Below, one piece after another: positions 2,588-42,736 of a stretch of DNA of 64,000 nucleotides (the stretch's first letter is position 1; each line of letters starts with the position of its first letter). This stretch comes from Patescibacteria group bacterium. Lineage in GTDB: Bacteria > Patescibacteriota > Patescibacteriia > UBA9934. The position numbers and the translations under genes were made by a program. The notes beneath the pieces were generated by a model. It made no database searches, was not told where the DNA came from, and saw only the letters and a program-made list of their open reading frames with translations. Location: assembly GCA_018062825.1 (NCBI GenBank), contig JAGORL010000003.1:72333-136332 (forward strand). Reading direction: 5' to 3'.

Positions 2588-3010
2588 ATGCTTAGACAAA
2601 CTCAACAAGTAACGTCCTCTATGGCTAAGGTTAAAGCTCTTTCCGCGTCTTTCATTGAAGATATGAAGAACGCGCTCATCAGTGAACAGGCTAAGCTCGA
2701 AAAAGAGCTATCCAGCTTTGCGCATCGCAACCCAAAGAGCTCTGACGCGTTTGATGTTGATTATCCGGAAGTTGGTACCGATGAAGGCGAAAATGCTGCC
2801 GAGGTTGCTCAATTTAGCGATAATCTGTCACTCGAACAGGAGCTCGAAAGTGCCCTTAAAGATGTAAAGTCAGCACTTACCGCTCTTGAAAAAGGGGAGT
2901 ACGGCTCTTGCAAGTACTGCAAGCAACAGATCGACGAAGCTCGCTTGCGCATTCGCCCAACATCAACTTCTTGCGTTGCTTGTAAGAAAACCCTTACACA
3001 GGAGGTCTAA
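2588..3010 (+). CDS. DksA/TraR-family C4 zinc-finger protein
   Basis: Coiled-coil N-terminus followed by C-x2-C-x17-C-x2-C (CKYCKQQ...CVACKK), typical of DksA/TraR. Confidence 0.7.
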   Translation: MLRQTQQVTSSMAKVKALSASFIEDMKNALISEQAKLEKELSSFAHRNPKSSDAFDVDYPEVGTDEGENAAEVAQFSDNLSLEQELESALKDVKSALTALEKGEYGSCKYCKQQIDEARLRIRPTSTSCVACKKTLTQEV

Positions 3011-3492: not shown

Positions 3493-5010
3493 ATGGGGAG
3501 TTCTTTTATTTCGAGTGTTGCGATTATTGGGCTTACTGGCGTATCCGTGCAGATTGAGGCTGATCACGCGTTCGGACTACCGCGCACGACGATTGTTGGC
3601 CTACCTGATGCGGCCATCAGCGAAGCTCGAGACCGAGTAAAATCAGCAATTAAAAATAGTGGATTTTCTTATCCGCCACACGTCGTTACGATCAATCTTG
3701 CACCAGCTGATGTAAAAAAATACGGTCCGGGCTTTGATTTACCGATCGCGATTGCGATCCTCCTTGCGACCGGTGTCCTTGAGCCGGCGCATGTTGAAAA
3801 TATTGTTTTTCTTGGTGAACTTGGACTTCACGGCGACATTCGTCCGATACGGGGCGCTCTACTTGCAGCGCAGGTTGCGGCGCGAGCCGGTGGCAAGACA
3901 CTTGTTGTGCCGACAGCTAACGCCGACGAAGCGGCGGTGATTGCTGACGTACAGGTTCATGCTGCGCACTCGCTTCGGGATCTTATCTGCGCACTGCAGG
4001 GACGTACCCTCGCTATTTGTAAGCACACGCCATGGAATCCGACGTTCGTCGCTACGGGGCATAATAATTTTGCGGACATACGCGGTCAGCAAGCAACGAA
4101 GCGAGCGCTTGAAATCGCCGCAGCCGGCGGACATAATGCTCTTATTTTTGGCCCACCCGGGAGCGGAAAAACGCTCCTTGCTCGTGCGCTTCCTGGCATC
4201 TTGCCACCACTTAGCTATGACGAGTCACTGGCTGTGACCGGTATTCACTCACTCTATGCAGCCGCGGGTACATACCGGGGACTCATGACTGAGCGACCTT
4301 TTCGAGCTCCACATCATGGAGCCTCGGCGAGCGCGCTTGTTGGCGGAGGAACCATTCCTCGTCCGGGTGAAGTGTCACTTGCGCATCGAGGTATTCTTTT
4401 TCTTGATGAGCTGCCGGAGTTCTCAAAGCATGTTCTTGAAGCACTACGACAACCTCTTGAGGATGGCGTCGTCACCATTAGTCGAGCCGCGGGAAGTATT
4501 GAGTTTCCAGCACAAACAACACTGATTGCCGCACTTAATCCGTGCCCTTGTGGTTACTTTGGAACAGATCGTGCCTGCACCTGCACTGATCGCATGCGCA
4601 TGCTTTATTTACGCAAGATCTCAGGTCCACTTCTTGATCGTATTGACCTTGCAATTCATGCGCGAGCTCTGTCGCCACTGGAACTCACGCAAACACCGAC
4701 ATCTGAATCTTCCGAGGCTATTCGTGAGCGCGTCATTCAAGCTCAGGGCTTTTGTCATGAGCGTGGACAGAAGCGGCGCAACGCCGACCTGCAAGGCAAG
4801 GAGATTGTAGAGATCGTGAAACTGACACGTGAAGCTGAACAGATGCTGCAAGGAGCAATGACTCATCTGCAACTTAGCGGACGCGGCTATCACCGTACAC
4901 TTCGGGTAGCACGAACAATTGCTGACTTAGCGAAATCAGACGCTACAACTGAACTTCATGTTGCCGAAGCTCTGAGCTACCGACTTCCTAAAACACTTCT
5001 GACGCCCTAG
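3493..5010 (+). CDS. comM: YifB/ComM-family Mg-chelatase-like AAA+ ATPase
   Basis: N-terminal Lon-protease-like domain, Walker A GPPGSGKT, Walker B ILFLDEL and a C-terminal Mg-chelatase-like tail. Confidence 0.85.
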   Translation: MGSSFISSVAIIGLTGVSVQIEADHAFGLPRTTIVGLPDAAISEARDRVKSAIKNSGFSYPPHVVTINLAPADVKKYGPGFDLPIAIAILLATGVLEPAHVENIVFLGELGLHGDIRPIRGALLAAQVAARAGGKTLVVPTANADEAAVIADVQVHAAHSLRDLICALQGRTLAICKHTPWNPTFVATGHNNFADIRGQQATKRALEIAAAGGHNALIFGPPGSGKTLLARALPGILPPLSYDESLAVTGIHSLYAAAGTYRGLMTERPFRAPHHGASASALVGGGTIPRPGEVSLAHRGILFLDELPEFSKHVLEALRQPLEDGVVTISRAAGSIEFPAQTTLIAALNPCPCGYFGTDRACTCTDRMRMLYLRKISGPLLDRIDLAIHARALSPLELTQTPTSESSEAIRERVIQAQGFCHERGQKRRNADLQGKEIVEIVKLTREAEQMLQGAMTHLQLSGRGYHRTLRVARTIADLAKSDATTELHVAEALSYRLPKTLLTP

Positions 5011-6395
5011 CGCGCTAGATAATCACCCGGGTTCTTGAAGACACCATTTAAGAGAACCTCAAAGTGTAAGTGTGTTCCTGTTGAATTTCCGGTTGATCCA
5101 CAACGACCAAGAGGGGTTCCAGAGGTAACGCTGTCACCTGATTTAACGTAGAGACTGTTAAAGTGGCCGTAGCGCGTGACAAGACCATCACCGTGATTCA
5201 CCTCAACAGTAAGACCGTAACCCTTCTTGGTGCCGGAGAACTGAATGATACCGTCAGCGGCAGCGTAGTTATCGTTGGTACTTGTGCCGTCGGCATGGCC
5301 ATTGCAGTCGATATCGTATCCGGTATGGAACCAGCTCGTTTTACGTACGATATATTTCAGATCGGTTGGCCAAATCATGGACGCACCTTCAGCAAGAGCG
5401 ATGTCAGCATTTGAATCACTTGGCGCTGAAGTAAAGATTTCTTTTACGGCGACAGTAACCGGGCGGGAGACTGGGGTGGTTACCCGCTTTTCACCGCCAG
5501 GCACAATTAAACGTTGTCCGATTTTGAGGGCGTTCGCGCTTTCAATGTTGTTATAGGCCAAGATCTCTTCTGAGGAAACGCCGTAGGTGTTTGCGATTGC
5601 CGAAAGGGTGTCGCCGCTTCTGACAGCGTGCTCAACACCTGTTACCGGTAGGATGGATAGGGTATTTCCAGGTTTGATAATCGAACGAACCGTAAGACTA
5701 TTTGCCCAAAGCAACGTATCAAGAGAGATGCCAAACTGCTCCGCGATTGATGAGAGGGTATCGCCTGAGGCTACAGTATATGTTTCAACCTCAGTGCGCG
5801 TTCTTGGCGTTACCGGAGCATCAACTGCAACTGTTGCTGCTAGTGACGTATCGGTTGAAGTTGGGACGTCAGCTGCAACCGGCTGAGCTGTGAGTACTGC
5901 GCTACTTAAATATGACGATGGCACGTGCGTGATGGCGGCCATTGGATCAATATATTCTTCAACGATCTCTACATTTTCTGTGGAGACCATGGCGTAAAGA
6001 ATGCTTTTCTGCCCTACTGAATCACGTTCAGCACGGACTGTTCCAATTTGAATATTGCTTGCACCAGCTACAACAGCGATCATAATCGCAACTACGTGCA
6101 CTGCAAACCGATTGGAGAGAAAAAACATGAACCGGTTCTTTGCTGGCCGGTAGAGCGAGGCGAGTTGGTGACGAAATGAAAAGGCGATCTCGTAGAGCGG
6201 CAGGATAAATAGCGACAAGAATAGGCGCCCGAACGGTCTTGCGACAATTAAAAGAAAGCTAGCGACCTTGATGATTAGTCGTTTTAAGGCTACCAAACCA
6301 CGCACGAACATTAGACCAATTTTAGCTAATGTTGGAGAAATATTTGCCATAGGATCGGCAACGGGTAGCATAGCAAACTTCCCGCTCTTCGCCAA
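5007..6395 (-). CDS. M23-family metallopeptidase with LysM domains and an N-terminal membrane anchor
   Basis: Two LysM motifs (GDTLSSIAEQFG.., GDTLSAIANTYG..) and an M23 catalytic region (HxGxD..HLHFEV). The start codon is uncertain; internal Met codons are possible. Confidence 0.8.
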   Translation of the reverse strand: MAKSGKFAMLPVADPMANISPTLAKIGLMFVRGLVALKRLIIKVASFLLIVARPFGRLFLSLFILPLYEIAFSFRHQLASLYRPAKNRFMFFLSNRFAVHVVAIMIAVVAGASNIQIGTVRAERDSVGQKSILYAMVSTENVEIVEEYIDPMAAITHVPSSYLSSAVLTAQPVAADVPTSTDTSLAATVAVDAPVTPRTRTEVETYTVASGDTLSSIAEQFGISLDTLLWANSLTVRSIIKPGNTLSILPVTGVEHAVRSGDTLSAIANTYGVSSEEILAYNNIESANALKIGQRLIVPGGEKRVTTPVSRPVTVAVKEIFTSAPSDSNADIALAEGASMIWPTDLKYIVRKTSWFHTGYDIDCNGHADGTSTNDNYAAADGIIQFSGTKKGYGLTVEVNHGDGLVTRYGHFNSLYVKSGDSVTSGTPLGRCGSTGNSTGTHLHFEVLLNGVFKNPGDYLAR

Positions 6396-14476: not shown

Positions 14477-14636
14477 TATAGCTTATTTTAGCCACTTTGT
14501 CAAGGAAAAATGCCTATAATTTGGCTAATATTAGCTAAATAGCTTTAATAAGCTTCGCTAGCATTAGCCATGTTTTAGTATTTGGGTAGAAAATTGCTTT
14601 ACATCCCTGATTTTTTGGTACACTTTAGATGAATAT

Positions 14637-35974: not shown

Positions 35975-36388
35975 ATGAAGAAACTCGCTGTTGCAGCACT
36001 ATTTTCGATCGGCTTTTTGCTGCCGGGTATTTCTTTGGCACAGCTTTCTCCAGGTGATAACTATGGTTTGAATGATACGGCGCAGGCCGGATACGGTGAG
36101 GGCGTGACCAGCAATAGCAATATCGGCACTTATCTTGGTACTTATATTATTCAGCCAGTACTTGGTTTGATGGGTATTTTGTTTCTTTTACTGACAGTGT
36201 ATGCGGGATTTTTGTGGATGACAGCCCAAGGTGATGATAGCAAGGTTAAGAAAGCAAAAGATATTTTGGTGGCGGCGGTTATTGGGGCGGTGATCATGGC
36301 TTCAGCTTATGTTCTGACTGCGGCAGTTTTTAACGCCTTGAGCACGGGTAGTATTACAGCTGCGGCAACTACTTCTACCCAAGAATAG
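35975..36388 (+). CDS. TrbC/VirB2-like pilin-family protein, paralog 4
   Basis: LLLTVYAGFLWMTAQGDDSKVKKAKDILVAAVIGAVIMASAYVL. Confidence 0.6.
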   Translation: MKKLAVAALFSIGFLLPGISLAQLSPGDNYGLNDTAQAGYGEGVTSNSNIGTYLGTYIIQPVLGLMGILFLLLTVYAGFLWMTAQGDDSKVKKAKDILVAAVIGAVIMASAYVLTAAVFNALSTGSITAAATTSTQE

Positions 36389-36391
36389 TGT

Positions 36392-36787
36392 ATGAAAATT
36401 TCCCGCTCACTTATTTTGACACTTATTTTATCAGTTGTTTTATTTATTCCAGCCGTTGTTTTTGGGCAGTTTACTGACGGACTACCTGACGTCGCTGACG
36501 CCACTCAAGGTGGTTATAATGCAAATTCTAGCTTAGCCGGTACGATTGGTTTACTTATTCAAGCATTTTTGGGAATTTTGGGAGTAATTTTTTTACTCCT
36601 TACTATTTATGCTGGCTTCCTTTGGATGACGGCAGCTGGTGATGATGGCAAGGTCAAGCAGGCCAAAGAAACGCTCGTGCGAGCAGTGATAGGTATGGTG
36701 ATCGTGCTCGCTGCCTACAGTATTACTTTCTTTGTGCTGGGTTATGTTGCAGCTGCCACGTCACAGACGATTATTGGAGGTGTTTAA
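36392..36787 (+). CDS. TrbC/VirB2-like pilin-family protein, paralog 5
   Basis: LLLTIYAGFLWMTAAGDDGKVKQAKETLVRAVIGMVIVLAAYSI. Confidence 0.6.
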   Translation: MKISRSLILTLILSVVLFIPAVVFGQFTDGLPDVADATQGGYNANSSLAGTIGLLIQAFLGILGVIFLLLTIYAGFLWMTAAGDDGKVKQAKETLVRAVIGMVIVLAAYSITFFVLGYVAAATSQTIIGGV

Positions 36788-36822
36788 TAATGTGATACAC
36801 TATATTCATAATTAAAAGCACT

Positions 36823-37215
36823 ATGATTTCTACTTTAAAGAAGGTGTTCGTAGCTGGTGCGCTTGCTCTTTTGCCGTTTGGCGTTGCCGCTGTTCCTAGC
36901 GTGCACGCACAAAGTGCACTTGAGTCTACTTTGGATGATGTTCAGGCAGAATCAGGATTAGGTGATCAGGATTTGACTACCACCCTTGGTATGCTTATCC
37001 AGGCCATGCTTGGACTCCTGGGTGTTATTTTCCTGGTACTTATCATCTACGCTGGTTTCCTTTGGATGACAGCGGGTGGTGATGAGGGCAAGGTTAGCAC
37101 GGCTAAGGACATCATGATCCGTTCGGTGGTGGGCTTGGTGATCTTGCTCTCAGCGTACGCGATCAGTAGCTTCGTTATTGATGCGCTTATCGAGGCGACC
37201 GGTTCCGGTTCCTAA
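36823..37215 (+). CDS. TrbC/VirB2-like pilin-family protein, paralog 6
   Basis: LVLIIYAGFLWMTAGGDEGKVSTAKDIMIRSVVGLVILLSAYAI. Confidence 0.6.
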   Translation: MISTLKKVFVAGALALLPFGVAAVPSVHAQSALESTLDDVQAESGLGDQDLTTTLGMLIQAMLGLLGVIFLVLIIYAGFLWMTAGGDEGKVSTAKDIMIRSVVGLVILLSAYAISSFVIDALIEATGSGS

Positions 37216-37222
37216 TCAATTT

Positions 37223-37254
37223 AAAAAGACCTGCGGAAACCGCGGGTCTTTTTT
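37223..37254 (+). terminator. Intrinsic terminator closing the pilin array
   Basis: AAAAAGACCTGCGGAAACCGCGGGTCTTTTTT. It is nearly identical to the terminator at 50054-50085. Confidence 0.7.
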
Positions 37255-37305
37255 GTTTTATAAATAGCGAACGCCCCAGTTCTCCGAAGAGAATGGGGCG
37301 TGAGA

Positions 37306-37911
37306 TCACCGAGTGGGACACCGGCCGAGATTGAACTCGGAGCGGCGGCTCCACAGAGTGCTGTCCTTCATGATGTGGGCGAGGCTGTTGCAGCTCCCGA
37401 CCTTGTTGCCGGCAACCGTGGCGGGGCCAGCAGCGGTAACGGCCATGGAGTTCAGTGCGAACACTGCGATCCCGTTGTATACGCTGATGGTCTTAGAGCT
37501 TTCCGGCACAGCGCCACCGTAGGTGGAACCGGACAGTTGGACGCGCGGCGTGGACAGGATGGTCCAGGCCGAGCGACCGCTCGGAATGCAACTCACGAAT
37601 TCGGTGGGTGACACCCAGAGGCCGATGGCGATCCGGGTTTCGATCCCGCTTTGTTCGGTGAGGGTCATGACGGCGCTCGGATTTCCCGATCCGTCGAGGT
37701 TCGGGCGCAGACACCACTGGGTGGTGTTGCGCACCTCGAGACACAGCGGGTTGCTGTCGCAGCCCGCGGGCGGCGAGAGCACCCACTCGTTCTGGACGGT
37801 GGGGATGAACAACACCTGCGCGTTGTTCGTGCTTCCGGCACCCGCCAGGGCCGCCGTGGGGGCGAAGAAGGCGAGGACGAGGGTGAACAACGCGATGAGG
37901 GTGCGGATCAT
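37306..37911 (-). CDS. Secreted Cys-containing protein A of the GC-rich island
   Basis: Signal peptide MIRTLIALFTLVLAFFAPTAALA, six Cys, GC3-rich codons, and a GGAGG Shine-Dalgarno before the ATG at 37911. The track ORF extends further to 37962. Confidence 0.6.
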   Translation of the reverse strand: MIRTLIALFTLVLAFFAPTAALAGAGSTNNAQVLFIPTVQNEWVLSPPAGCDSNPLCLEVRNTTQWCLRPNLDGSGNPSAVMTLTEQSGIETRIAIGLWVSPTEFVSCIPSGRSAWTILSTPRVQLSGSTYGGAVPESSKTISVYNGIAVFALNSMAVTAAGPATVAGNKVGSCNSLAHIMKDSTLWSRRSEFNLGRCPTR

Positions 37912-38006
37912 GGGAACCTCCGAACTTGAAAGGGCGAGTGAACTCTGAGGCCTCGGCATCATGATTGATGCTGGTGCCAGTGGAGTGCCCTTCTTGCGAA
38001 AGGCGA

Positions 38007-38090
38007 GTTAGCTAGTTGCGAACGTCCAGGCTCCGTAGAGCATGATGGCTGCGATGGCGAAGAAGAAGATTGTGACGATTGACGCGGTCA
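38007..38090 (-). CDS. 27-aa single-TM hydrophobic peptide (MTASIVTIFFFAIAAIMLYGAWTFATS)
   Basis: Hand-found ORF between island genes B and A on the same strand, preceded by an AAGGAA Shine-Dalgarno 5 nt upstream. Below the ORF-track size cutoff. Confidence 0.35.
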
Positions 38091-38193
38091 TGTGGTTCCT
38101 TAGGTGTGTAACCCGCAGACAGCTCATCTTGAGTGATGAACGGTCAGTAGGGTGCCCGTTCGGACTTCTTGGAAGAAGCCGAACGGGACGTAG

Positions 38194-38826
38194 TCACTCT
38201 GCGAGCGCGTCGTTCGCGGCGCGGAGCGAGACCACTTCGCTCTCGAGCTCGCGGACGCGGGCGTCCGTGGCGGAGGAGGTGGTGGTCGACGGCGCGGGCG
38301 AGGCGGGCGGCGGGGTGATCTGGCCCATCGAGGCGGACTGGAACGCGAGCGTTCCCATCTGGCCGAGACCCGGCATGGCCATGCCGGGCATGAACATGCC
38401 GCCGTTGCCAACCGAGATGGCGGCGTACGGGGCGGCCTGGCCGGTGGCGATGAGGTCGCCGTCGGCGTAGGTCGCGACGTTCGCTTCGATGCCCGCGAGG
38501 GAGACGTCACGGCGGGTGCCGGCGTCGACCTGGCGCGTCGCGGCGTCGATGCAGCCGACGCCTTGCCCCATCATCTCGATGGTGTTCTTGGCGCTGACGT
38601 GCTCGGCGTCGATCGTGACACCGCACGCGTTGACCGACACCGTGGGGCGTCCGGTCAGCTGCGTGTTGCTCGTGGCGTCGACTCGGCCGCTGGTCTGCGT
38701 GCGGGGTGCAGCGGGGCTGCGCTCGGCGACCGTTGCGGTCGGGCGGCTGGTCGCGTTCGGGTTGCCACCGGCGAGGGCCGGGGTGGCGAAGGCGACGAGG
38801 GCGGCGAGGGTGATGAAGCGGATCAT
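38194..38826 (-). CDS. Secreted low-complexity protein B of the GC-rich island
   Basis: Signal peptide MIRFITLAALVAFATPALAGG, a Pro/Ala/Thr-rich region, and a C-terminal coiled-coil-like tail. GAGG Shine-Dalgarno before the ATG at 38826. Confidence 0.55.
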   Translation of the reverse strand: MIRFITLAALVAFATPALAGGNPNATSRPTATVAERSPAAPRTQTSGRVDATSNTQLTGRPTVSVNACGVTIDAEHVSAKNTIEMMGQGVGCIDAATRQVDAGTRRDVSLAGIEANVATYADGDLIATGQAAPYAAISVGNGGMFMPGMAMPGLGQMGTLAFQSASMGQITPPPASPAPSTTTSSATDARVRELESEVVSLRAANDALAE

Positions 38827-39203
38827 GGATGACCTCACAGTGGAAGGAGCGGATACTTTACCTGGCAGGTATTAGCCAGTTCAAGTAACACATATTTATA
38901 GCACAAATTTTGGAAAAAGTCAAGGGGGTTAGTGAGATAATTTGGCTAATATTAGAAGAAAATGTGAAATCGGAGATCGGGGATCGGAGATGGATTGAAA
39001 TGCTTTTTTGTGATTGCTACACGGAGATTTCTCAACTCGGCATTCAGACTCGTTCGGGATCGCAAGACGATACATGTAATTGTTTGTTGAGACCTTCCCG
39101 AACGAAAGTTAGGGATCTTGGTTATGTGTTGGCTCTTGGCACGAAGGCTAGACCCCTCACTTGCGTTCGGGGAAGTTTTCAATACTTTTAATAATGGCAT
39201 TTT

Positions 39204-39221
39204 ATAGCTAATATTAGCTAT
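39204..39221. promoter_or_regulatory. 18-bp perfect palindrome ATAGCTAATATTAGCTAT (candidate operator) upstream of the island gene C promoter
   Basis: Perfect dyad. Related sites occur at 14521-14537 (TTGGCTAATATTAGCTA), 38941-38955 (half-site) and 6411-6430, all in divergent promoter regions. Confidence 0.5.
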
Positions 39222-39239
39222 TTTTGTTTACTTATCCCA

Positions 39240-39268
39240 TTGACAAAACGTCGATTTTATGCTACTAT
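39240..39268 (+). promoter_or_regulatory. Sigma70-type promoter TTGACA-17-TACTAT for island gene C
   Basis: Consensus -35 and near-consensus -10 with a 17-nt spacer, ~85 nt upstream of the ATG at 39354. The hexamers match the rRNA promoter at 57222-57250. Confidence 0.6.
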
Positions 39269-39353
39269 ATAGTGTTCGCAAGTGCGGCACATCGCCCATT
39301 TCGCGAAAGCAACTTCACAATCTGCAGTCACAAAGTGACAATCGGAGATCGCC

Positions 39354-41384
39354 ATGGCCACGGAGTCTACTGGAGACAATCGTCGTATCGTTGAGCAGAC
39401 GCTTGGCGAGATCGGAGAAGAGTGGCTCGAGACGATCGGTAAGGGGATCAATCCCATGCCGTTCCTCGCGACGCCCCACTTCTGGGGTCCGCCGGCGCGA
39501 GCAATCGCGAAGCGCGTGGCTAAGCATCCGAACACGATCCTGGGCGGCTTTTCTTTTCTGGGCGCTGTTGCGCAGGAAAAGTTGCCCTTCGGTCGGGATG
39601 TCAACCTCATCGTCGCCACGATCTTGCGCGGTATCCCGCGTCTCGCTGAGAATTCGTTGGCGGCACATGGTGTGACCGCTGACAACATCGAACAGAAGAT
39701 TGTCGAGTGGGCTGTGCAGCTCGCGAAGGAGACCCCCATGACGACGACCATCGAGTCGAAGCCGGAGGCTCCCGCGACGCCCTCGGCACCCGCGTTCGAG
39801 CTCACGCAGGAGCAGGGCGATGCCCTCGGGCTTCTGCACCGCATCCTTGAGGTTCGCCTCACGGATGCGTTCAACTTCCCGACCGAGCCGCGGCGGTACC
39901 AGGCGCTGTTGCGCCGGCTGTCGGCGAGCCCGATCGCGGTTCAGTTCCTCCCGAAGCTCAAGAAGAAGGAGATCGATGCCACCCTCGCGCACTTGCGCAC
40001 CCTCCAGACCTGGACGGCGCCCAACGTGAGCGAGGACCGGCCGACCGACGAGATGGCCGCGCAGGCGCGGATCGAGGTGGAGAAGGTGCTCTGGCGCTAC
40101 ATGCGCTTCGAGGCCGCCCTCTTCGCCCATGATCACCACCTGAACGGCGCCTATTCGATCGTCATCGGGGCGCTCGATCGTCTCGATGCGAACGTGACGG
40201 ACGAACAGCGTCGCCAGTTCCGGGAGTTTTGGGAGCGTCAGCTCCAGAACCTCTCGGAGGCCGGCATCCCCGGCATGACCCGTGACTTCGCCGAGAACTC
40301 GGCGCGAGTCATCCGGGAACAGGCGGAGCGGCTGTTCGGCTTCACGGTCGACGTCGGCCGACAGGTGTTCGAGTTTGCGGCCTGGGCGTTTGTGGGGGTC
40401 AATAGCCTCCTCATCGCCGGGATCGCGCTCTGCCTCATGGGTATCACCATGGTGGCCGAGCAGACGTTCGTGGCTCCGGCGCTTCTCGGACTCCTCTTCG
40501 TGATCCAGGTCGGAATCGCTGGGCGTCTCCTCACGAGCTCTCTGAGCACGGCGTGGAAGGCGGCCATCGTCATCGCGGCGGCAGCGCTCCTCGTGTTCCA
40601 GGTGTCGTTCGTGTCTGCGCTTCTTGCGCACCCGAGCGTTCTCCTCTTCCAGGTGGGGATCTGCCTCATGTGGATCTGGTACTTCTTCGTCGGACTGTTC
40701 GACGCGGTCGTCAACGGCTTTGCGGCCTTGACGCGCGGAGAGCGGTTCGGCCGGGATGCCGGAACGATCACGAGGGCGTGGATCGCGACGCGCAATGCCA
40801 TCATCGGCCGCACGGTCGAGGGGCAGGGCACGGCGGATGTGCCGGTACAGTTCCGGTGGTTCCGCAATTGGTCGCCGACCGTCGTCATCATCGTCTCCCT
40901 CGTGGGTGGTGTTGGTAGCGCGACGCAGGCGTTCTGGTTCGGTGCTTCGGGCGGCTTGTTCTCGGCGCTCATGTTGCTTGGCTCCGGCTGGCTCACGGGC
41001 GGTTCCGCGATCATGTACACCCGTGGCAATCGGCAGTTGACGGCAGCGGACAAGGATAACTTCTGGTCGCTCGACTTGCGGCAGAAGTACGCCAAGCGGG
41101 CGTTCCTCGTTCCCGGTGTCCTCGGCCAGGTGATGCTCGTCGTTGGCCTTGCGACCCTCTTCGTTCCTTGGTTCAAGGGCGAGGCTCTCGGTCAGCAGGT
41201 CACGGTGGCGCAGCACGTAGTGGTCGAGCCCGCAGCTAAGCAGGAAGCGACGCCCGTCATCTCGACGAGCGACGCGGCCTGCGAGAAGGTCGAGCGAATG
41301 CTCCAGGCGTCTCCGGACGTTTGCACGCTCTCGCCCGGCCTCAAGAGCTGCGCCACTGCCAAGCGGTGCGGACTGCTGAAGTAA
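39354..41384 (+). CDS. 676-aa polytopic membrane protein of the GC-rich island (soluble N-terminal ~330 aa plus ~8 TM helices)
   Basis: Strong GC3 codon bias (ctc/gcg/acg/atc/gag) unlike the flanks, GGAGA Shine-Dalgarno, and no family motif recognised. The antisense 690-aa ORF is a high-GC artefact. Confidence 0.65.
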   Translation: MATESTGDNRRIVEQTLGEIGEEWLETIGKGINPMPFLATPHFWGPPARAIAKRVAKHPNTILGGFSFLGAVAQEKLPFGRDVNLIVATILRGIPRLAENSLAAHGVTADNIEQKIVEWAVQLAKETPMTTTIESKPEAPATPSAPAFELTQEQGDALGLLHRILEVRLTDAFNFPTEPRRYQALLRRLSASPIAVQFLPKLKKKEIDATLAHLRTLQTWTAPNVSEDRPTDEMAAQARIEVEKVLWRYMRFEAALFAHDHHLNGAYSIVIGALDRLDANVTDEQRRQFREFWERQLQNLSEAGIPGMTRDFAENSARVIREQAERLFGFTVDVGRQVFEFAAWAFVGVNSLLIAGIALCLMGITMVAEQTFVAPALLGLLFVIQVGIAGRLLTSSLSTAWKAAIVIAAAALLVFQVSFVSALLAHPSVLLFQVGICLMWIWYFFVGLFDAVVNGFAALTRGERFGRDAGTITRAWIATRNAIIGRTVEGQGTADVPVQFRWFRNWSPTVVIIVSLVGGVGSATQAFWFGASGGLFSALMLLGSGWLTGGSAIMYTRGNRQLTAADKDNFWSLDLRQKYAKRAFLVPGVLGQVMLVVGLATLFVPWFKGEALGQQVTVAQHVVVEPAAKQEATPVISTSDAACEKVERMLQASPDVCTLSPGLKSCATAKRCGLLK

Positions 41385-41388
41385 CAAA

Positions 41389-41419
41389 TACCTCCTTGCC
41401 CACGCGGGGCGAGGAGGTA
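41389..41419 (+). terminator. Terminator-like hairpin after gene C
   Basis: TACCTCCTTGCCCACGCGGGGCGAGGAGGTA, GC-rich with a weak U-tract. Confidence 0.4.
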
Positions 41420-41506
41420 CTCATCCCCTGATTCGAGCACTCGCTCGGGTCGGGGGATTCTCTTTTTAGGGAGTAGGAAGTAGTTAGTAGAAAGTAGGCC
41501 AGGTCA

Positions 41507-42736
41507 TCACTTACGTTCGGGAAGGGGAGTTGATTGAGCGCGACTTAACATCATTGCAAAGAGTAGTGCGCCGATGATTGCGAGATCATTTTTCATTAAT
41601 GGGACGTCTACCAAGCCGTGAATACAAAGTGTGCACAAGGCAGCAAAAGCGGCTAAGGTTAGTGGATCATGATTGCTTGACCTGACGACTTTTGCGGTTG
41701 CGAGCATAAATGCGATGAGCGCGATGAGGCCAAGAGCACCGAGCTCGACCCAGACGTTTAGGATGATGTTGTGCGGGTATTGGAAGGTCTCAAATAGAGT
41801 TGCATCATGGTATGGAGTAATGGCGATTGGGAAGCCGTTTAAGCCAGCACCTTTGAGCGGGTGATCTTTGAGAAGTTCAAAGGTTTCTTGCCAGGTATGG
41901 AGGCGCGCTTGGCCTGACCAGTCACGGAGCAGGATTTTTTCTCGAGTGATTGGGATGAGTAAAGCAGTGACGCCAAGAAGACAGGTCGCTCCAATAAGGG
42001 CGATTTTTTGTTTGCTTGAAATGTTGGCGCATAGGAGGGAGCACAGCATGCCGATTGGAATGGCGATGAGTGCGGCTTCGGTTTGGGCAAGAAGAATTGC
42101 GAGTATGCCGATGGCGCTCAAGCTAAGAAGCGACTTTCGATGCTTTTTTGTGAGGATGGCAAGAGTAGTAGTTAGCGCGACGATGGGCGCTACAAAAAGG
42201 CCAAGTGCGTTTGGATACTCAAAGAAGCCGGTAGCACGACGCTCGATATCCCACGGGAGCGGAATTCCGAATCCGGTTGTCACTTGAAATAAGGCAAAGA
42301 CGGTCATGATGCCGACACTTGCCCCAAGAGCGCCAATGGCCTCTAGATAGTCATTTTTTGCTTTCCACGTGACGCGCATCATTATGAGTACGGCCATTGG
42401 TTCTAGGTAAAATGCTTTCCAAATGCCGAGTGCGGAAAAGATGTCGGGAGCGAGGGCGGCGCTGACTGAGGCTGCGGCAATAAGTAGTAGGAGAGGGGTG
42501 CGATATGGACCAAGAATCTGCAAGGGAAAGAGTTTCCAGGCTTGGTACTTGATCGTAAAAATGATGATGCTAGCAATAACGAGGAGCTCAAGCAGGGTTG
42601 TTGGGATTGGACCAATGTTAAAACGCAGGAGATATGTAGGTAGTAGCGCCATGAGTACCTTGAGGGCCAGTGGAAAATCACGCCAAGCAATAATGGCGTA
42701 TCCAATGACGATCAGTGCGGCCAAGATGAGCAACAT
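41507..42736 (-). CDS. O-antigen ligase/Wzy-like polytopic membrane protein
   Basis: ~10 TM helices and a periplasmic loop with YPHNIILNVWVELGALG, typical of the Wzy_C/O-antigen ligase family. Confidence 0.55.
   Translation of the reverse strand: MLLILAALIVIGYAIIAWRDFPLALKVLMALLPTYLLRFNIGPIPTTLLELLVIASIIIFTIKYQAWKLFPLQILGPYRTPLLLLIAAASVSAALAPDIFSALGIWKAFYLEPMAVLIMMRVTWKAKNDYLEAIGALGASVGIMTVFALFQVTTGFGIPLPWDIERRATGFFEYPNALGLFVAPIVALTTTLAILTKKHRKSLLSLSAIGILAILLAQTEAALIAIPIGMLCSLLCANISSKQKIALIGATCLLGVTALLIPITREKILLRDWSGQARLHTWQETFELLKDHPLKGAGLNGFPIAITPYHDATLFETFQYPHNIILNVWVELGALGLIALIAFMLATAKVVRSSNHDPLTLAAFAALCTLCIHGLVDVPLMKNDLAIIGALLFAMMLSRAQSTPLPERK

Follow-up and report, generated by a model that had tools for sequence, protein, structure and literature searches.

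A probable bidirectional control region with a conserved palindrome and a lineage-specific insert in a hypervariable gene module of Patescibacteria

Between two divergently oriented genes, here called B and C, a genome of Patescibacteria carries an intergenic spacer (positions 38827-39353) whose composition and architecture raise the question of what it is for. Positions refer to the window, i.e., the whole stretch of 64,000 nucleotides (nt) that was analysed (contig JAGORL010000003.1 of assembly GCA_018062825.1, positions 72,333 to 136,332 of the forward strand), unless a related locus is named. By 1-kb segments, the guanine-plus-cytosine (GC) content has a background of about 47% and a block at about 37.3-41.4 kb of 56-66%, the content of this block being three open reading frames (ORFs), A, B, and C; the spacer itself is AT-rich, with a GC content of 0.39-0.44 as against 0.64-0.72 in the flanking ORFs. 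In the original prediction, this drop was read as host-style regulatory DNA within a foreign island, with an attenuator-like set of mutually exclusive hairpins and a cysteine-rich ORF of 63 codons, and the features then listed are all present, within 1-3 nt of where they had been placed. The best explanation is that the spacer controls a conserved module of three genes in both directions, serving B and A leftward and C rightward, and that the 250 nt in its middle (in the following, the core) are a rearrangement scar; for both parts taken together, this explanation is considered probable, with appreciable room for doubt.

The control region comprises two outward-facing promoters of the sigma-70 type. 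On the plus strand, the predicted promoter TTGACA-17-TACTAT (39240-39268), here P_C, is recovered by a promoter scan; its transcript should start near 39275, and the conserved initial transcribed motif GTTCGCAAGTGC is situated at 39274-39285. On the minus strand, a second promoter, P_B, which was not among the features first listed, was read from the sequence, the promoter scan having missed it, as its rule admits only -10 hexamers that end in T, whereas that of P_B is TATAAA. P_B aligns with the P_B promoters of two related loci (L005 and L003; related loci are numbered L001 to L016) and with a further promoter of the window at 14.5 kb; transcription from it would start near 38888, leaving B with a 5' untranslated region of about 62 nt.

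In front of each of the two promoters, at a distance of exactly 21 nt from the -35 hexamer, stands a palindrome of the form GCTAATATTAG(C/A), and the copy that belongs to P_C is the perfect 18-nt palindrome (39204-39221) that had been proposed as a host operator. With at most one mismatch allowed, the window contains three copies of its 12-nt core, GCTAATATTAGC, where 0.14 would be expected. The combination CTAATATTAGC-N20/21-TTGAC is likewise found three times, against none expected, with a good -10 hexamer after each: on the plus strand at 39208-39244 (P_C), and on the minus strand at 38955-38919 (P_B) and 14534-14499. The palindrome is thereby supported as a recurring cis-element of this genome.

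At both P_B and P_C, the palindrome centre lies at about -62 from the inferred start. For class I activators, e.g., CRP of E. coli, a site position near -61.5 or -62 is classical. The spacer shares with class I CRP-dependent promoters of E. coli the perfect palindrome, the fixed distance upstream of the -35 hexamer, the centre near -62, the service of two outward-facing promoters, and a site that is conserved while its flanks diverge, whereas GCTAATATTAGC is unrelated to the CRP site, is duplicated in this genome, with one copy per promoter, and belongs to an uncultivated Patescibacteria bacterium. The palindrome would be the site of a dimeric DNA-binding protein in an activator-type position or, alternatively, possibly an UP-like element. 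Among the window ORFs scanned with Pfam, no candidate regulator was identified, and a literature search for the motif and for promoter mapping in Patescibacteria found nothing relevant.

The promoter at 14.5 kb stands in a palindrome array (14481-14568) of one perfect copy (14524) and two degenerate copies (14481 and 14557), flanked by a minus-strand ORF for a secreted protein of 177 amino acids (aa) and by the plus-strand PBP1A gene. At 2433-2504, an inverted repeat with arms of 34 nt (76% complementary) and a loop of 4 nt contains GCTAATA/TATTAGC palindrome half-sites.

For comparison, the B-C spacers of four related loci were used, namely L005 (7600-8000), L006 (1-394), L003 (1413-1832), and L002 (on both sides of an insertion sequence, IS). 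The 12-mer GCTAATATTAGC is identical in all four. On the B side of the relatives, the palindrome is followed by 21 nt and then by TTGACA, and three orthologous P_B promoters could be aligned; on the C side, TTGACT-17-TATA(G/C)T is followed 5 nt on by GTTCTGAA(G/A)TGC, which matches GTTCGCAAGTGC of the window. As an alignment of the whole intergenic regions with MAFFT misaligned the right half, anchored alignments of the promoter segments were used instead, and in these the -35 hexamer, the TGnTA -10 element, and the trailing GTTCnnAAnTGC motif of P_C are all conserved in L002, L003, and L005. Since promoter and motif on the C side match across the relatives, P_C is regarded as the orthologous promoter of C. 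No intergenic similarity beyond the 12-mer was found by blastn. The control region has been kept although the module proteins of the relatives are only 30-34% identical to those of the window, i.e., it appears to be conserved in a fast-evolving module, and the native style of regulation that had been predicted for the spacer is supported.

A strict pattern scan of metagenome contigs yielded five further palindrome loci (L007-L011) with GC contents of 33-57%; in these, the spacing of TTGAC and palindrome is set by the search pattern, such that only the -10 hexamer constitutes an independent observation. The sites are located upstream of varied, unrelated genes, including that of ribosomal protein L32 (rpmF) in L009. 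In L011, a single palindrome has TTGAC at N21 and N20 on its opposite sides, i.e., a symmetric divergent pair. Judging from these loci, the palindrome appears to be widespread in Patescibacteria.

Concerning the core, which lies between the two palindrome copies of the window and is flanked on either side by the 11-nt direct repeat GCTAATATTAG (38945-38955 and 39207-39217), no counterpart exists in the orthologous intergenic regions of L002, L003, L005, and L006. Each of these contains one palindrome, at a distance of 68-70 nt from the -35 hexamer of P_C, and no detectable similarity to the core was found in their spacers. If the core and one copy of the direct repeat are removed from the window, what results is a perfect palindrome that has N21-TTGAC to its left and to its right, as in L011. 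A second copy of the core was found neither in the 64-kb window nor in the related loci.

The word AATCGGAGATCG of the ribosome-binding region of C (39340-39351) recurs in the core, once exactly (38968-38979) and once in an 83% copy (38982-38993), in agreement with the repeated words first reported; two exact copies appeared in 4 of 100 shuffles. Three further segments (arms 1 to 3) allow the predicted alternative pairing, in which arm 2 finds a partner either upstream or downstream: 39050-39059 is complementary to 39096-39105 at 10 of 10 positions, a perfect upstream complement of 10 nt that appeared in 0.2% of shuffles, and arm 2 (39092-39118) pairs with arm 3 (39150-39176) over 27 nt at 81%. 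Folding gives -23.7 kcal/mol for the 5' hairpin and -41.7 kcal/mol for the long hairpin on the plus strand (39 pairs, 7 of them G-U), compared with -35.8 kcal/mol on the minus strand (31 pairs, 2 of them G-U); the z-scores of the fold are -2.7 (plus) and -3.1 (minus). Repeats, palindrome, and triple-arm arrangement all exceed what chance would give. The positions of the main features are given in Table 1.

Table 1. Positions and properties of the features of the B-C spacer, of the gene module around it, and of the corresponding related loci (strand given as + or -; GC3, GC content at third codon positions).
Feature	Position	Strand	Remarks
A-B-C trio	window 37306-41384; L005 6345-10181; L002 3456-8127; L003 187-4013		
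Gene A	37306-37962	-	secreted protein with signal peptide, 218 aa, GC3 0.82; second gene of B-A operon
Gene B	38194-38826	-	secreted protein, 210 aa, NCBI tag KBC55_03585, GC3 0.92
Gene C	39354-41384	+	multi-pass membrane protein, 676 aa, KBC55_03590, GC3 0.83
Promoter P_B	38895-38923	-	-35 TTGACT (38923->38918), 17-nt spacer, -10 TATAAA (38900->38895); read from sequence
Palindrome copy 1, GCTAATATTAGA	38945-38956		11/12 match; 21 nt upstream of -35 of P_B
Core, 250 nt	38957-39206		between palindrome copies; GC 0.44
Copy of ribosome-binding region of C	38960-38993	+	AATGTGA-AATCGGAGATCG resembles 39331-39351; followed by partial tandem copy GATCGGAGATGG
63-codon ORF	39000-39191	+	Cys residues 4, 6, 26, 28, 55; CxC-19-CxC; judged non-coding
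Arm 1	39048-39062	+	alternative upstream partner of arm 2
Long imperfect hairpin	39086-39183	+	arms 2 and 3, then UUUUCAAUACUUUU
Palindrome copy 2	39204-39221		perfect 18-nt palindrome, core 39207-39218; 21 nt upstream of -35 of P_C
Promoter P_C	39240-39285	+	-35 TTGACA (39240-39245), 17-nt spacer, TG-extended -10 TACTAT (39263-39268); promoter scan
Ribosome-binding region of C, AATCGGAGATCG	39340-39351	+	GGAGA 39344-39348, ATG 39354
Arm-repeat copy at 3' boundary of C cassette	41506-41525		overlaps stop and last codons of Wzy_C; 16/17 to reverse complement of arm 2; direct match to arm 3
Third palindrome promoter	14499-14535	-	palindrome-N20-TTGACA-17-TATAAT; drives 177-aa secreted-protein ORF
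Identity breakpoints L002/L005	L002 5990-6010, 8650-8720; L005 7990-8010, 10740-10800		

In the original prediction, the three arms were taken for an attenuator with antiterminator and terminator; they would then belong to a long leader of C, and translation of the 63-codon ORF might be linked to them. The likeness to known attenuators (trp, his, and leu leaders, T-box elements, expression platforms of riboswitches) lies in a central segment that has an upstream or a downstream partner, with both conformers confirmed by folding and the upstream complement rare in shuffles, and in the U residues after arm 3. However, the arms (39048-39176) are located 64-190 nt upstream of the -35 hexamer of P_C and also upstream of the divergent P_B, such that, with the starts where they are predicted, they should be part of neither leader. 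They precede the conserved palindrome and the orthologous P_C, the promoter scan found no plus-strand promoter of the sigma-70 type upstream of them, and a transcript terminated there would stop short of the promoter in use in the relatives. The supposed terminator is a 98-nt imperfect hairpin, with a bulged stem of about 39 bp followed by UUUUCAAU, which the terminator scan did not call and which is not conserved in the orthologous loci; in the four related loci, distant as these are, both the pairing and the ORF are missing along with the core, a lack of conservation that the original prediction had itself named as speaking against it. Neither a sensing element nor a match to a riboswitch, T-box, or leader family was found, the Rfam scans (36000-42000 at E<=1; 38840-39360, 521 nt, at E<=10) returning only sub-threshold chance matches, and the ORF, which runs through the hairpin, contains no run of regulatory codons. 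An attenuator is hence rated as very improbable.

The 63-codon ORF does possess a start codon and, as had been predicted, a ribosome-binding word (GGAGAT, 8 nt before the ATG at 39000), whereas its cysteine pattern had been given with 20 instead of 19 residues between the two CxC motifs. An ORF of at least 63 codons is found in 22% of shuffles of the region, i.e., its length is not beyond chance. The host codon model gives the frame -0.078 bits per codon, which is less than the 5th percentile of true host frames (0.053), the 95th percentile of wrong frames being -0.158; with the codon model of the module itself it scores -0.42, and its GC3 is 0.41 as against 0.85 in the module. Scans of the 63-, 93-, and 82-aa ORFs against Pfam and NCBIfam gave no match, the exact 63-aa sequence is absent from a collection of 15 billion proteins, and no relative was found when viral contigs were scanned with the 93-aa ORF. 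No gene is called in the spacer by PGAP or in Logan contigs, and as B and C carry consecutive PGAP locus tags, nothing is annotated between them. A single-sequence AlphaFold2 model of the product reaches a predicted local distance difference test score (pLDDT) of 49, which is weak evidence. The ORF is judged not to be a gene, and the small protein of the original prediction is not upheld.

The core might, in another reading, harbour an independent small gene, be it a small RNA of about 150 nt transcribed from a weak internal promoter (e.g., TTGAAA-17-TACACG at 38994-39022) or the cysteine-rich peptide itself if transcription started further upstream, with the long hairpin and the U-run as an intrinsic terminator. 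The greater stability of that hairpin and its larger number of G-U pairs on the plus strand, the UUUUCAAUACUUUU stretch that follows it, the z-score of the fold, and the GGAGAT word are in accordance with such a gene; yet the candidate -10 hexamer TACACG lacks the conserved final T, a scan of 38880-39230 found no plus-strand promoter, the hairpin would overlie codons 30-62 of the ORF, the codon statistics are those of non-coding sequence with no homologue, annotation, or Rfam match, and the core is missing at the orthologous loci. A small gene is therefore considered rather unlikely.

The favoured origin of the core, a scar, is connected with the history of the module. The synteny between L005 and the window is complete (NTP_transferase, SBP, six pilins, A on the minus strand, B on the minus strand, C on the plus strand, Wzy_C on the minus strand, Polysacc_synt, SpoIID); L002 has the same order on the pilin side, with an IS1595 element within its B-C spacer, and the short contig of L003 carries A, B, and C alone. 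Wherever the contig reaches it, i.e., in the window, L002, and L005, the trio adjoins an operon of type IV secretion system (T4SS) pilins. The GC3 of A, B, and C amounts to 0.81-0.94 in all four genomes, as against 0.36-0.66 in the neighbouring genes, and the coding GC of the module to about 60-72% in L002, L003, and L005, the flanks of L002 and L005 being mostly at about 46-54%. From this synteny and the shared GC3 excess, the trio appears to be a resident module rather than the foreign island that had been proposed: an old, syntenic, and unusually fast-evolving one, and not a recent foreign insert. Biased gene conversion, with the locus as a hot spot of recombination, is one possible reason why the GC3 excess persists.

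The proteins of the module diverge far more than their neighbours. Between window and L005, identity amounts to 47-80% for the flanking proteins but to only 30-34%, over partial lengths, for A, B, and C; between L002 and L005, two pilins are 98-100% and a third 71% identical, compared with 33% for A, 65% for B, and 55% for C. A full HMMER scan with C of 1.84 billion representative proteins found two remote colinear homologues (P0003 and P0004), to which a profile search added P0005. Word-indexed protein searches with B and C returned self-matches only, and the C profile matched only the contig of L002 itself among genome contigs and nothing among metagenome contigs. On the nucleotide level, L002 and L005 are about 98% identical up to the ribosome-binding site of C and near-random from about 4 bases before its ATG, and identity returns within the last 20 codons or so of Wzy_C, such that the variable C cassette appears to have sharp borders.

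Further elements are situated at this locus in the relatives. In L002, an element with an IS1595-family transposase (about 4934-5819) lies between the palindrome and P_C, with the target duplication CCAATAGAG; L005 and L006 represent the empty site. A repeat of about 330 nt exists in three direct copies in L005 (526-857, 5820-6141, and 10294-10625) and in two in L002 (2796-3125 and 8240-8568), bracketing the module on both sides; its centre is self-complementary and its 3' end resembles a terminator. It has no match in Rfam, is absent from the window, and could be a miniature inverted-repeat transposable element (MITE) or an undescribed structured RNA. The core was also considered as a relative of this repeat or of the IS1595 element of L002, but the nhmmer comparison gave E=4, and local alignments did not exceed chance. 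The record of L004, which is on the same contig as L002 (CAZXUX010000002.1), is entitled 'uncultured Gammaproteobacteria bacterium'; its PF18895 pilin arrays and A-B-C trio match Patescibacteria loci, and it is probably mis-binned or mislabelled.

Within the 64-kb window, it is at the two ends of the C cassette that the core finds its best matches. The segment 38960-38979 aligns with the ribosome-binding region (39331-39351) at a score of 28, which equals the maximum of the controls, and the arm repeat aligns with 41506-41525 at scores of 29 inverted and 26 direct (about 2,900-3,000 control windows sampled; 99th percentile 24.5, maximum 28). The arm repeat is represented by a 17-mer at 39093-39109 (plus), 39159-39175 (minus), and 41509-41525 (minus), i.e., three times in the window at no more than three mismatches, against 0.33 expected occurrences. 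The sequences copied in the core coincide with the start and the end of the cassette, that is, with the identity breakpoints of L002 and L005. A decayed copy of the 5' coding region of C or the 3' coding region of Wzy_C was rejected as a source, the similarity being confined to 20-22 nt and 17-19 nt, respectively.

The core is thus most likely a lineage-specific scar of recombination or insertion rather than an attenuator or a gene. It would have arisen by insertion, by partial duplication, or as a deleted cassette at a recombination-prone locus, and would be assembled from copies of the ends of the C cassette, namely the ribosome-binding region and the 17-19 nt at the stop of Wzy_C. An insertion or duplication would have split, and hence doubled, a formerly single palindrome shared by both promoters, and the core, being upstream of both predicted starts, would probably be contained in neither mRNA. 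The mutually exclusive pairings would, in this reading, be a by-product of three copies of one repeat in alternating orientation.

Several observations weigh against this explanation. The hairpin folds better than shuffled sequence (z about -2.7), the 7 G-U pairs on the plus strand compared with 2 on the minus strand are a mild hint of constraint on a plus-strand RNA, a U-rich stretch follows the long hairpin, the word GGAGAT at the start of the 63-codon ORF resembles a ribosome-binding site, and a weak or non-sigma-70 promoter may be present within 38957-39040, TTGAAA-17-TACACG (38994-39022) being a candidate. The terminal inverted repeats of the putative insert are weak (AAAATG/CATTTT), and a single copy of the core is known. 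Furthermore, the relatives are distant, and absence of the core from them is no proof that it is without function in this lineage. Closer sequences, taken from two NCBI assemblies as well as from two sequencing runs (L001 and L012-L016), offer no variation: a search for closer strains with the exact pilin and Wzy_C proteins returned contigs of apparently the same strain only, and the B-C spacers of L001 and L012 are identical to the window where aligned.

Among mobile elements, the core is comparable to MITEs and to repetitive extragenic palindromes (REPs) or bacterial interspersed mosaic elements (BIMEs). It has in common with them that it is short (250 nt), non-coding, hairpin-forming, and intergenic, that an 11-nt direct repeat of the target flanks it, that the orthologous site in the relatives is empty, and that the same locus in relatives is occupied by an IS1595 element and by another palindromic repeat, of about 330 nt. 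It differs from them in being single-copy as far as known, in its weak terminal inverted repeats, and in its internal repeats, which copy the ends of the neighbouring cassette and not a dispersed family.

The coincidence of the repeats with the cassette ends also suggests a functional variant of recombination, in which the 17-mer and the ribosome-binding word serve as sites of exchange or inversion of the hypervariable C cassette, and the core is an empty or vestigial cassette or the end of an invertible segment with P_C and C. Inverted copies of the 17-mer that agree at 16 of 17 positions (39093-39109 and 41509-41525) do bracket P_C, C, and the terminator, and the excess of the 17-mer, the two top matches of the core at the cassette ends, their position at the breakpoints, and the IS1595 and 330-nt elements of the relatives would fit with such sites. 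The arrangement recalls phase-variable invertible segments (fimS, polysaccharide promoters of Bacteroides) in its 17-nt inverted repeats around a promoter-containing segment at a surface-protein locus; here, however, promoter and gene are both inside, and inverting them together would leave expression unswitched. No recombinase, integrase, or transposase was found among the scanned window ORFs of at least 150 aa, which are nearly all of them, the 17-mer was not found in the related loci, and a single orientation is observed in the assemblies from runs SRR11088486 and SRR11088367, in both of which the junction of Wzy_C and C is as in the window and the aligned B-C region identical to it. An apparent inversion in L015, with a same-strand gene after Wzy_C, is in reality the antisense ORF of C on a cut contig. 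Functional recombination sites are accordingly held to be improbable. It is a speculative idea, of low probability as well, that the core is a vestigial or 'empty' cassette marking a swap of C at the junctions formed by the ribosome-binding word and the stop of Wzy_C, with GCTAATATTAGC as operator of an undescribed regulator that is widespread in Patescibacteria and controls the module.

In kind, the spacer belongs to a known type of element, the bidirectional promoter region whose upstream palindrome is conserved, and carries in addition what is probably a lineage-specific scar; what deserves notice beyond it are the palindrome and the syntenic, GC3-rich, hypervariable A-B-C module with its sharp cassette borders. 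Patescibacteria are uncultivated and host-dependent, and their regulation is almost unknown. A 12-bp palindrome at a precise position before the -35 hexamer, conserved across genomes of 33%-57% GC, might provide a handle on a regulator and its regulon. The resident GC3-rich trio is relevant to the interpretation of islands called by composition in genomes of this kind, and to the question of which surface proteins may mediate contact with the host.

The window as a whole is a core chromosomal region of a metagenome-assembled genome of Patescibacteria (candidate phyla radiation), with housekeeping genes such as dnaA, dnaN, those of trigger factor and PBP1A, ruvB, and others. On the pilin side, the A-B-C block is adjoined by a bidirectional terminator (37223-37253) and by the T4SS_pilin (PF18895) genes, five or six in number; 3' of C, a terminator (41423-41458) is followed by the genes of Wzy_C, Polysacc_synt, and SpoIID. 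Scans of A, B, and C against Pfam and NCBIfam gave no match. Gene A, which is called shorter in L012-L014 (201 aa), exhibits weak homology to the gene at the same position in L005 (34% identity over 98 aa, E 3e-13), and B is homologous to B of L002 and L005 via a conserved ACGV...MM.Q..C...TRR block. Directly past the stop codon of B, the A-B spacer forms a hairpin, CCCGTTCGG...CCGAACGGG (38150-38190), which has the word CCGAACG/CGTTCGG in common with the repeats of the core. Antisense to C, a minus-strand ORF of 690 codons extends over 39315-41387, as is usual for coding sequence of high GC; in L015, a truncated contig, the antisense ORF was called as a gene (4779-5627), which represents an annotation artefact.

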